The position numbers were made by a program, and so were the translations under genes. From a virus (Duplodnaviria; Heunggongvirae; Uroviricota; Caudoviricetes): a stretch of 40,415 nt of DNA. Shown piece by piece: positions 2,494 through 39,755 of this stretch. The notes under the pieces are model-generated. The model made no database searches, was not told the origin of the DNA, and saw only the letters and a program-made list of their open reading frames with translations. The stretch spans positions 1 to 40,415 of IMG/VR virus record IMGVR_UViG_2551306526_000008; one strand, written 5' to 3'. Position 1 is the stretch's first letter. Each line of letters begins with the position of its first letter.

Positions 2494-4497
2494 TCAAATC
2501 AGCCCATAAATAACATTATGCAAATGAAGAGAGCCTGCTTCACCGGAAACATCAAAATCAATCCTAACTTTGCTTGCTCCAGGAGGAACAATATCTATTA
2601 ATGCGTAGAAATTCCATGTGGAGCCTGGTGGAATTGTAAATGTTGCTTTTCCCTGAACAGAGTTCCCTTCTTTATCAAAAAACTCAATGCCAGCGATTGT
2701 TGTCACTTGATTCTTAGCCCAAAAACCTAACTGGAAATATCGTCCTGGTGAGCAGTCGGAGCACTCCTGATAAAATTTTGCAGATGCTCCTATAGATGGT
2801 ATTGCTACATACAAAGACCTGGAAAACATAATATCATTTGGAACATCAGAATCCGTTCCTGCTGTAACAACACCTGAACCAGTTTGTTGAAGGCTCCAGT
2901 TAGAGTAGTTTAAAAACTGTCCACTGCCATTCGACAATGAGTTTATGTAAGCACTAACAATGTTACCTTTATCCCAATTTGCTGTTATAAAGCCAGCCCT
3001 GGGATAACAACCATAAGACATTACTTTCTTACTGTTCCCACCAATAATTTGACGCGCAGCAGCACCAGCGGCAATCTCTGTTTGCTCATATAGAGGAAGC
3101 GAACAGTTTGTTAGCGAGACGACCGCATCATCATTTGCAACGATTGGTATAGCTGAATATCCAGATGTAGTTAGCAGCGTTGAATCTTTAATACTCAATC
3201 TGGAACTGCCGCCAACCACAAATGCAACAAAACTTTGACTTGGTTGAAATTCAATGTTGCCATTTGCGTAAACAACTGTTGCGTTATCTTCAATAAAAAC
3301 AGTAGAATCAAAATAACCTTCTTTCTTACCTGCTGGCATAGAGCAACAGTTAAAAATAAATTGACCATTTCTCATGGTCAATGGACCTCCATTATCAACA
3401 ACCCAACAATTATTAAATGTCATTACCTCGCCTGAGTTTGATGGAGAATTAAATATAATTGTGTTGTTTAGACATCTTGATATTGTTACTTTGTCAAATA
3501 AAATTCTATATGAATTATCAAGAAACTCAATTCCAGCAGATGATATGAATGAAGAATTACTTATTCTTAACTCTGCTAATTCACCAGTGCCAATACCGCC
3601 AAGTAAAATCTTTTTAGATCCTAGCATCTTAAAAGATATGCCATCTAAAATTGATGTTGCATTTATTTCATCCCTATTATCATAAGAAATATTAGAGTTG
3701 CTTAACCTAATTGCATAATCACCTGATATCCCATTAATCTCAGTTAAAACGCATTTATTCGATCCTCTTAACCCACCCTTCGCGAAATCAATATCAATTA
3801 AACTCGAGAATTCTCCACTACATGGAACAACGCAATCATAACCTAGAGAGTTTATTTTATTAATAAATAATGCAATATCCCCAGCGCCGCTGTAACCAGC
3901 GTCATATACAGAAAACTCAAGGCTTGGGTTTATTCTCTTCCAATTTACACCGTTACCTTCTAAAACCATTACGTTATCAACTGCAATTGACTTGTCTACA
4001 GCTACAACAAACCCACCACCAAGTTCGAGTCCGGATACGTATGACTTTAAATATAATTTATCAGATATCGACATTCCTTGTATATCTTTAAGGGAGTTAG
4101 CGCTCTCTACCATTCCAATGTATTTGTAGCCAATATTACTTGATAGTTTTATAGATAACTGATCAGGATCATACTTCAGCACATTAGGAAAATAAAACTG
4201 CTGCGCACCATATGCATCATAAACAGCCATAGAATGGCCTTGCACAGTTACGAACTTGGCAATCTGTCCGTTATATACAGGGTAACCAGCAGCGTTAATG
4301 ATGATTGGTTGCGAAACAGGAACGTGAGAGCCATCTTCGTTTTCCACATAAACCTGAATCTGGTTTTCAGGATTTACCGGGTCAGTGTCAATTTTACCGA
4401 TATAAATTTTGCCATTGGCTACGGCTTTAAAAGAACGCGCCATAGTGAAGAGTTGCGATGGCATACTTACTACAACATTGGCTGTAATGTCTGTCAT
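2494..4497 (-). CDS. Tailspike protein: P22 gp9-like N-terminal head-binding domain with divergent receptor-binding/depolymerase body
   Basis: 667 aa; N-terminus [46 protein letters not shown]...VLKYDPDQ closely matches recalled P22 gp9 N-terminus; remainder not P22-like. Confidence 0.85.
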
Positions 4498-38557: not shown

Positions 38558-38902
38558 ATGTCAGATTTGGCTATGAAGGTTTTGAAATGGCAATCGACTG
38601 GCGATGTCGGAATCAGTAGCGCAACTCTTGCCTCAATCGCATGTGGACTGAAAAAGAATATCTATGGTCATCACTTCGGTGCTCCACATGACGCAGCCGA
38701 TTTCCGACGATGCGTTGCACTTGTTGAGCAGATTCCAGAAATCAGGGATTCATTCGACAAGGTTGCAAAGCGCGTTCCGGCATTCAAAGGAATCCTCAAC
38801 GAATGGGATTCCCTCGTTGCTCTGTTGAAGTCTGAAATGAAGATACACGGAAACAAAGCACCAGAGACTTACAGAAGAATCAGCGAGCTACGCAAGGACT
38901 AA
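38558..38902 (+). CDS. Hypothetical protein in terminator-insulated unit at prophage right end
   Basis: ORF 38531-38902 trimmed to ATG at 38558; 114 aa; no recognised family. Confidence 0.5.
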   Translation: MSDLAMKVLKWQSTGDVGISSATLASIACGLKKNIYGHHFGAPHDAADFRRCVALVEQIPEIRDSFDKVAKRVPAFKGILNEWDSLVALLKSEMKIHGNKAPETYRRISELRKD

Positions 38903-38946
38903 CCCGCCTCACACTCGATGAGGCATTTTCATTTATCAAGATATCC

Positions 38947-38975
38947 AGACCTACCATCGCCGCATCAATGCGGTT
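38947..38975 (+). terminator. Intrinsic terminator upstream of torI
   Basis: ccgca tcaa tgcgg hairpin followed by T7; a second hairpin gcctca...tgaggc at about 38905-38930. Confidence 0.6.
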
Positions 38976-38980
38976 TTTTT

Positions 38981-38996
38981 ATTGCCTGATTTGCAG
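38981..38996. repeat. 16-nt copy of argW T-arm segment (ttgcaggttcgattcc)
   Basis: Exact match to tRNA positions 1054-1069; lies 300 bp left of attR core. Confidence 0.6.
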
Positions 38997-39025
38997 GTTC
39001 GATTCCCTATTCGGAGATAGCACTC

Positions 39026-39226
39026 ATGCAACACGAACTACAACCTGATTCACTGGTTGATTTGAAATTCATCATGGCCGATACTGGCTTCGGTAAAACC
39101 TTCATCTACGACCGGATTAAGTCCGGCGACCTGCCAAAAGCCAAAGTTATCCACGGACGAGCAAGATGGTTATATCGTGACCATTGTGAGTTCAAAAATA
39201 AGCTCTTAAGTCGCGCCAATGGGTAA
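39026..39226 (+). CDS. torI: Excisionase / recombination directionality factor TorI
   Basis: 66 aa; MQHELQPDSLVDLKFIMADTGFGKTFIYDRIKSGDLPKAKVIHGRARWLYRDHCEFKNKLLSRANG matches recalled E. coli TorI. Confidence 0.85.
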   Translation: MQHELQPDSLVDLKFIMADTGFGKTFIYDRIKSGDLPKAKVIHGRARWLYRDHCEFKNKLLSRANG

Positions 39227-39299
39227 AATAGCGGGTAAAATATTTTTCACATATAAAAAATACCATTCCAATCAATCCCCTGCCGCTTCAAGTAGATGT

Positions 39300-39314
39300 C
39301 TGCAGGGGACACCA
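39300..39314. repeat. attR core: 15-bp direct repeat of argW 3' end (pawZ-like pseudo-tRNA fragment)
   Basis: ctgcaggggacacca identical to 1069-1083; GGGTAAAA motifs at 39221-39228 and 39233-39240 just upstream. Confidence 0.85.
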
Positions 39315-39755
39315 GATACCCTTCAAACGAAATCTACCTTCACCCCGTAAAAGATGGGTTTGGCAGCACACTTGCCTTATATCTACTCATTTTTACTGCA
39401 ACAGGTTGAAATCTCAGCACTGTCAGAAAGCGCTGATGACTAAACAGCCCTGGGCCGGGCGATGTAACCATCACACAGAATCCTGATAGCGAAATATGGC
39501 GTGACTCGATACTTCACTCCGCAATGCATTCCTTGATGAATTCGCAGGACCGTGATACACGGGACAGGTCACTGAATGACGACAATGTCCTGGAAATCAG
39601 CGAACCGCGCATCTGAAGTACATTTGAGCGACTGTACCAGAACATGAATGAGGCGTTTGGATTAGGCGATTATTAGCAGGGCTAAGCATTTTACTATTAT
39701 TATTTTCCGGTTGAGGGATATAGAGCTATCGACAACAACCGGAAAAAGTTTACGT

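Follow-up and report, generated by a model that had tools for sequence, protein, structure and literature searches.

The window analyzed here, 40,415 nt of IMG/VR record IMGVR_UViG_2551306526_000008, holds an intact prophage in the tRNA gene argW; this prophage is P22-like and of the HK620/Sf6/CUS-3 type. Its torI gene, which encodes a recombination directionality factor (RDF), is preceded by a 16-nt sequence, TTGCAGGTTCGATTCC, that is identical to a variable-loop and T-arm segment of argW. We are very confident that this 16-mer is a conserved leader element borne by the phage. Judging from its sequence, it probably descends from the T arm of argW, and on balance we consider it a second and separate partial tRNA-like copy, not the left half of a copy that torI has split. 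We lean toward the explanation as a whole, in which this T-arm-like leader is a second copy kept for cis regulation of torI. The features on which the argument rests are these:

1009-1083, + strand: argW, tRNA-Arg(CCT), found by ARAGORN; the phage-derived core copy restores its 3' end.
1054-1069, + strand: variable-loop and T-arm segment of argW equal to the 16-mer.
1060-1069, + strand: GTTCGATTCC in argW, the likely left (B) core half-site of attB, from the comparison of attP with attB.
1069-1083, + strand: attL copy of the 15-bp core, with a probable 7-bp overlap TGCAGGG (1070-1076) and right half-site GACACC (1077-1082).
38959-38980, + strand: intrinsic terminator, GCCGCATCAATGCGG followed by T7, directly 5' of the 16-mer region, at a mosaic joint where the early-left genes meet the recombination module.
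38991-39006, + strand: 16-mer TTGCAGGTTCGATTCC; its cross-lineage conserved core is CAGGTTCGATTCC(C) at 38994-39007.
39007-39025, + strand: remaining torI leader, with a variable stretch of 6-7 nt, the Shine-Dalgarno sequence GGAG (39013-39016) and a spacer to the ATG.
39026-39226, + strand: torI, RDF gene, 66 amino acids, 100% identical to HkaC of HK620 and gp18 of Sf6 (PMC3509656).
39300-39314, + strand: 15-bp core at attR, the counterpart of the K-12 pseudogene pawZ; the bacterial flank starts at 39315.

The 16-mer occurs exactly twice in the window, once within argW at 1054-1069 and once at 38991-39006. Shuffles that allowed up to two mismatches gave an expectation of 0.01 matches, so a link to the tRNA is almost certain and a chance match is rejected. 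The initial annotation had equated a segment at 38981-38996 with argW 1054-1069; the identity stands, and the true position is 10 nt higher. It was right about the second piece, as the 15-mer CTGCAGGGGACACCA is found at both 1069-1083 and 39300-39314, and right that the joined pieces give the last 30 nt of argW (they share one C in tRNA coordinates). The roughly 300 bp with torI that it described between them come to 293 nt (39007-39299). ARAGORN finds a single tRNA in the whole window, which is argW, and within 38800-39450 there was no tRNA match in Rfam at an E-value of 10 or below. The region of the 16-mer thus has neither a cloverleaf nor a covariance-model match, and just 16 nt there are identical to the tRNA. 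Among known RNA families, Rfam gave insignificant matches to the sRNAs isrK and ncS025 (14-17 bits against gathering thresholds of 46-50), which lie on the upstream terminators and off the motif. A second terminator-like hairpin is found at 38906-38924.

That the 16-mer belongs to the phage is shown by free-phage genomes. The alignment of HK620 and Sf6 with 38959-39314, at about 96%, runs through the 16-mer, torI and the core, and in both of them the 16-mer sits at the left edge of the torI-attP-intS module. The part in common with HK022, HK97 and Huey is 38850-38979 only. Because these three match up to 38979 and HK620 and Sf6 match from 38959, we regard the terminator at 38959-38980 as a mosaic joint, which puts the 16-mer about 10 nt in from the left edge of an exchangeable torI-attP-intS module. 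IMG/VR prophages hold about 170 near-identical copies of the segment with the 16-mer. An alignment with the K-12 pawZ/torI region, which the initial annotation had proposed as a check, places the 16-mer at the same position in KplE1, and there pawZ is the 15-nt core alone.

Another proposed check was a comparison with an empty argW site. In Escherichia coli AMSHJX01 the empty site reads yfdC-argW-GATACCCTTC..., which is the same as the window from 39315 onward, so the limits of the prophage are the 15-bp repeat. This site fits both flanks and carries no extra tRNA fragment. These results also bear on the suggestion that the displaced pieces record an older integration event. A literal scar of an earlier argW integration in this strain would suit a busy hotspot, and many element arms do follow argW in IMG/VR, but the segment lies inside the prophage limits and is identical in the free phages HK620 and Sf6, and it is found in hundreds of prophages. 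The identity in free phages rules out a local scar in this host, and we give the idea practically no chance.

The initial annotation had further suggested that attP carried a longer tRNA segment with the excisionase gene inserted into it. In that case an ancestral attP with 30 nt or more from the 3' end of argW would have received torI and the P arm (293 bp) between positions 1069 and 1070; the T-arm half would have ended up upstream of torI, and the acceptor half would be today's core. The pieces do abut exactly in the HK620 type, with a one-base overlap, which is what a split predicts and counts against our two-copy reading; the Erwinia-type pieces abut with zero overlap. However, just 10-13 nt are common across lineages, the 5' TTG is limited to the HK620 type, and copies from Serratia, Pantoea and Edwardsiella pass the supposed break into CCTG or CCCTGT(C), duplicating core bases. 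The presence of the motif in all major Xis clades means that it could be ancestral, and long tRNA identity blocks exist in related phages, such as 43 bp of argU in epsilon34 (PMC2629481), but an insertion into a functional core would have had to keep recombination working.

We compared 67 distinct attP/attR sequences and found that they read (A/G)TT(C/A)GATGT(C/A) directly before TGCAGG at the left of the core. T.GAT matches the tRNA in 87-100% of them and the full TTCGAT is present in many. The bases immediately left of the attP core, TTCGATgtaTGCAGG, are T-loop-like in the correct register, so the tRNA-like block of the core is not truncated at 1069, and attP holds two T-loop-like segments, one of them directly left of the core. 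When we looked for an unsplit argW block with the contiguous 25-mer GGTTCGATTCCTGCAGGGGACACCA in IMG/VR viral contigs, 112 of the 112 informative matches listed had a full tRNA upstream, and no truncated phage-borne argW block of at least 25 nt was among the matches listed. A split would have the leader end where the core begins, nothing tRNA-like left of the core, and unsplit relatives; instead leader copies overrun the break, the sequence left of the core is T-loop-like, and no unsplit form was among those matches. The exact abutment keeps the split model alive, but we consider it unlikely.

For descent of the second copy from argW we point to the 16/16 match and to the argW-type core that lies downstream of xis in every motif carrier found. 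Since all these carriers target argW, they bear only in part on the refuting condition of the initial annotation, a generic T-arm match that would stand upstream of torI whatever the integration site. On the other side, GGTTCGATTCCC presumably also fits the T arm of tRNA-Gly(GCC), which leaves the descent of the deep 12-mer ambiguous. Host-only tRNA sequence may have entered the phage by illegitimate-recombination capture from an attL junction, or a longer identity block may have decayed.

In a prophage of E. coli F404 at argW (L004 1500-1560, equivalent to window 39014-39308; L numbers designate loci), a deletion has removed torI and the P arm together with half of the core. At its junction GGTTCGATTCCCTATTCGG is joined to ACACCATCC, with the crossover within a shared GGA, and the junction pattern is GGTTCGATTCCCTATTCGGACACCA. 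Written as GGTTCGATTCCCTATTCG followed by GACACC, the junction falls at the likely boundary of overlap and right half-site. We ruled this locus out as an unsplit form, as it is a torI deletion from the leader into the core. The deletion should lock that prophage in place.

Relatives were gathered in three ways: protein-similarity searches of the phage records, searches of the same kind with each species represented by one genome, and a scan of viral contigs for the motif. The leader core (CA)GGTTCGATTCC(C) lies about 20 nt 5' of the start codon of TorI-family excisionase genes whose proteins are 36-88% identical, and the conserved layout of the leader is (C)AGGTTCGATTCC(C), N4-7, GGAGAT, N6-8 and the ATG. 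The 5' TTG that brings the element to 16 nt is found in the HK620 type only, and the widely shared part is CAGGTTCGATTCC (13 nt). Representative lineages, with the identity of their Xis to TorI, are as follows:

HK620 type: Xis 100%, motif TTGCAGGTTCGATTCC.
Erwinia phage Midgardsormr38: Xis 88%, two tandem motif copies with a 17-nt period.
Serratia fonticola: Xis 85%, motif CAGGTTCGATTCCTG.
Edwardsiella and Pantoea stewartii prophages: Xis 74%, motif GACAGGTTCGATTCCCTGTC.
Salmonella g341c and Emek: Xis about 50%, motif cAAGTTCGATTCCC.
Erwinia phiEt88: Xis 39%, motif tAGGTTCGATTCCC.

Across 13 lineages the 14-mer is 86-100% identical to the copy in the window, compared with 43-78% for the 37 nt upstream, 56-79% for xis DNA and 36-88% for the Xis protein. 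Some copies are longer at the 3' end: Serratia (L218) and Pantoea (L221) add CCTG, the 3' strand of the T stem, and L224-L226 add CCCTGT(C/T), which gives the complete T-arm-like hairpin GACAGGTTCGATTCCCTGTC. Many of the IMG/VR examples were retrieved with a pattern that contained the motif, so the invariance is partly ascertainment, and this tempers our reading. The 34 species-level loci found by protein similarity were blind to the motif; the exact 10-mer was present in 10 of the 34 and near variants (GATTTCC, GATTTCT and GTTCTATTCCC) in another 4. In the remaining 20 of 34 the motif is absent, and a clear argW-type core is present in at least 11 of those 20. The motif is also missing from Klebsiella RCIP0114 and Erwinia EhrS_49. 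In the motif-less leaders of L220 and L239, TTATTGCCTG runs directly into GAGGAAAGC and the ATG, so the element behaves as an indel of about 24 nt.

A few observations on individual relatives stand beside these. In Midgardsormr38 (L005 1480-1516), T-arm-like CAGGTTCGATTCCC is doubled, 17 nt apart, before the excisionase gene. In Leclercia (L237 3001-3742) and Proteus hauseri (L231 3001-4567) a TorI-family gene is convergent with tRNA-Arg(TCT) and tRNA-Arg(CCT), respectively, and neither leader has a T-arm-like element; this is a different module layout. The T stem of the Proteus tRNA, ACAGG/CCTGT, resembles the leader hairpin of the Edwardsiella and Pantoea prophages. In Edwardsiella piscicida L226 (about 3200-3400; compare L224) the core after xis, TGCAGGGAACGCCA, is a variant tRNA end and is followed by phage P'-arm-like sequence, not by host flank, which suggests tandem elements or an unintegrated copy. 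The distant IntS relatives in Pseudomonas VW-6S, Acinetobacter Ab105-3phi, Rhodobacter RcAqua and F116 lack the xis-attP-int arrangement and so give no information on how general the leader is.

From the constant low-level expression of intS, the Ansaldi group concluded that control of excision in this family has to be exerted on the RDF gene (PMC2951348), and the module literature covered (PMC2951348 and PMC3509656) has no description of cis elements that control torI. We propose that a short element resembling the T arm of tRNA-Arg(CCU), with the 16-mer as its best-preserved part, forms the 5' leader of torI, at the left edge of the mobile module of KplE1/HK620/Sf6/CUS-3-type phages, and would be kept since it regulates torI in cis. 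Transcripts that read through the upstream terminator would carry the leader, with AUUCC(C) base-paired to the Shine-Dalgarno GGAG(A)U and, in most lineages, GGUU to the AACC just before the AUG. The helix would damp TorI translation and lead to fewer accidental excisions. In the proposed helix 84.6% of cells are paired, compared with 31-63% at slid registers, so the complementarity extends across lineages. Where the motif reads GATTTCC or GATTTCT, a U-A pair replaces a C.A mismatch, and most population variants of the HK620 type lie in the loop of the proposed hairpin.

Several results weigh against this reading. Covariation for the leader helix was not above that of shuffles. The folding energies of the leaders, -3 to -12 kcal/mol, are weak, with non-significant z-scores of -1.7 to +1.0. 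The HK620-type leader has no AACC partner and folds in a different register, and the conserved CG within the motif is not explained by the helix. We think that cis regulation of torI is somewhat favored as a function, but the anti-Shine-Dalgarno hairpin as its mechanism is doubtful. What stays constant across the carriers is the host machinery and the host argW sequence, which leaves two candidates; with low confidence, we place an RNA hairpin slightly ahead of an integrase half-site.

The half-site alternative starts from GTTCGATTCC in the leader, which would be a copy, set over the ribosome-binding region of torI, of the left (B) half-site of attB that each integrase of this family has to recognise in argW; IntS bound there would hinder torI or join the attP architecture, and IntS, which is constitutive in lysogens, might be delivered from arm-type sites about 215 bp away. 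The attP/attR sequences suggest a core made of half-site GAT(G/T)(T/C)(C/A), the 7-bp overlap TGCAGGG and half-site GACACC (reverse complement GGTGTC), in which the tRNA T loop would serve the integrase as the left half-site of attB, and the leader 10-mer is identical to that half-site (argW 1060-1069). The host argW sequence is the only constant among carriers that differ in their Xis and in their Int arm specificities. However, the phage C half-sites are far more variable than the leader motif, so integrase binding alone leaves the invariance of TCC unexplained. Lambda-type integrases bind lone core-type sites weakly, which also counts against this alternative. After the motif, most lineages have 7 nt and then GAGATA, loosely like the overlap and GACACC, but GAGATA does not follow the altered Edwardsiella right half-site AACGCC. 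In the F404 deletion the leader meets the core exactly where the overlap gives way to the right half-site, although the GGA shared at its junction means that it may be a simple microhomology deletion. We judge half-site function unlikely. A broader version, in which the leader copy of the argW T-loop half-site would gate RDF synthesis through integrase occupancy or as an RNA T-arm mimic, is, as far as sequence can tell, a little less probable still. If true, lysogeny in phages whose int and xis are transcriptionally uncoupled would be locked by a feedback that has not been recognised before, built on an element recruited from captured host tRNA DNA.

Another candidate is autoregulation. TorI sites carry the motifs GTTCG, GTCCG or GATCG, and TorI represses intS through such sites (PMC2951348). 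The sites on the attL side of the window, with the integrase gene, are:

1090-1178, + strand: TorI (RDF) sites I1-I5 of attL, predicted from K-12 coordinates and the motifs in PMC2951348.
1090-1096, I1, AGTTCGC; 1110-1116, I2, AGTCCGC; 1153-1158, I3, AGTTCG.
1163-1169, I4, GGTTCGC; 1173-1178, I5, AGATCG.
1200-1244, + strand: putative IntS arm-type P' sites, GGGTAAAA / TTTTACCC repeats, assigned from the sequence and overlapping the intS promoter; P' sites share a conserved TAAA (PMC2951348).
1245-2402, + strand: intS integrase gene, an open reading frame (ORF) whose product is 98-99% identical to the CUS-3, Sf6 and HK633 integrases.

The leader motif holds a GTTCG core at 38997-39001, some lineages read CAGTTCGA (like I1 and I3), and the Erwinia phage has two copies, so that TorI might bind its own leader. 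Those copies are 17 bp apart, though, compared with spacings of 10 or 20 bp in attL, and eleven invariant bases are more than a 5-bp TorI motif accounts for. Phage phiEt88 disfavors this candidate: its RDF has a different recognition helix and its P' arm repeats are now GTAACC/GTTACC, but its leader still reads AGGTTCGATTCCC, which means that the site does not co-vary with RDF specificity. We regard a TorI operator as improbable.

The HK620 GenBank record annotates a promoter and cII site (L001 1522-1560, equivalent to window 38980-39018), which would make the region a cII-activated integration promoter, with TTGC repeats flanking a -35 and driving hkaC (torI) and int during lysogenisation. 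The repeats are spaced TTGC-N5-TTGC, versus the N6 known for lambda, and the first TTGC is TTAC in K-12 and many prophages. In g341c, the Erwinia phages and phiEt88, all of which keep the motif, the repeats are absent. A promoter scan of the leader region found no sigma-70-like promoter, and the terminator abuts directly upstream. The annotation is older than the identification of HkaC as an RDF, and excisionase synthesis while lysogeny is being established would be counterproductive. With the wrong spacing, poor conservation and an excisionase gene downstream, we reject the annotated cII promoter and consider such a promoter very unlikely here.

At the level of the whole prophage, the window belongs to the KplE1/HK620/Sf6 argW module. 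A direct repeat of the argW 3' end, CTGCAGGGGACACCA[T], brackets the prophage (the K-12 core is 16 nt, CTGCAGGGGACACCAT, per PMC2951348). intS lies beside attL and torI beside attR, consistent with the xis-attP-int order in the HK620 and Sf6 records, and attL shows five TorI motifs and TAAA-containing IntS arm motifs at the sequence level. The interior is P22-like, with Huey, CUS-3, phiv205-1, Kapi1 and Sf6 at 95-96% identity. In IMG/VR loci L253-L331 the 3' end of argW is intact and is then followed by at least 10 different element arms, so argW is a heavily used hotspot for unrelated elements. The remaining features on the attR side are:

39203-39314, + strand: phage part of the minimal in vitro attR, beginning at the attR-IHF2 primer site 39203-39222 (PMC3509656).
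39221-39230 and 39233-39242, + strand: arm-type repeats GGGTAAAATA, within the minimal attR.
39276-39309, + strand: perfect 8-bp inverted repeat TCCCCTGC (39276-39283) / GCAGGGGA (39302-39309), conserved in every lineage examined.
39295-39300, + strand: likely left (C) half-site GATGTC, flanked by that inverted repeat.

A 135-bp attR is sufficient for excision in vitro (PMC3509656). The 16-mer lies 197 nt outside it and is dispensable for in vitro excision. The 8-bp inverted repeat may be an integrase site or a transcript hairpin after torI. A 43-codon ORF at 39219-39350 has homologues in HK620 (hkaB) and Sf6 (gene 17). It overlaps the torI stop and crosses the attR core into the host, so that phage and prophage encode different C-termini; it is unlikely to be a real gene.

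The scope of this work is an element of 10-16 nt in one well-studied module. A small leader that is better conserved than its gene is a concrete candidate for torI control, and a widely exchanged phage module now includes tRNA sequence that is otherwise the host's alone, from the T arm's 5' side and outside the crossover block. The old cII-dependent promoter annotation of HK620 is corrected. The T-arm-like leader is unmentioned in PMC2951348 and PMC3509656, where attR is taken from inside the torI 3' end, although the original footprinting paper may mention it.

Compared with the KplE1 (CPS-53)/HK620/Sf6/CUS-3 module described in PMC2951348 and PMC3509656, the window has the same 15-16 bp core repeat, attL TorI sites and arm-type repeats, a TorI that is 100% identical and an IntS that is 98-99% identical, and torI is the last gene before attR in both. 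We find no difference in kind, the window being an intact P22-like member. Shine-Dalgarno-sequestering hairpins and the sib retroregulation of int and xis in lambda would share with the proposed leader hairpin the logic of a cis RNA structure that limits a recombination protein; the likeness is a functional analogy alone, as the leader helix lacks covariation. K-12 pawZ is likewise a displaced copy of a tRNA 3' end at attR, but it is the 15-nt core only; 293 nt upstream, on the phage side, the 16-mer forms a distinct piece that is not annotated. Lambdoid phages that integrate at tRNA genes, such as epsilon34 and DLP12 at argU (43 bp; PMC2629481), carry tRNA-derived sequence that includes the T arm, as here. 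Their block is unbroken and serves as the crossover site; in the window the T-arm-like piece is detached from the crossover block and sits in the leader of a gene.

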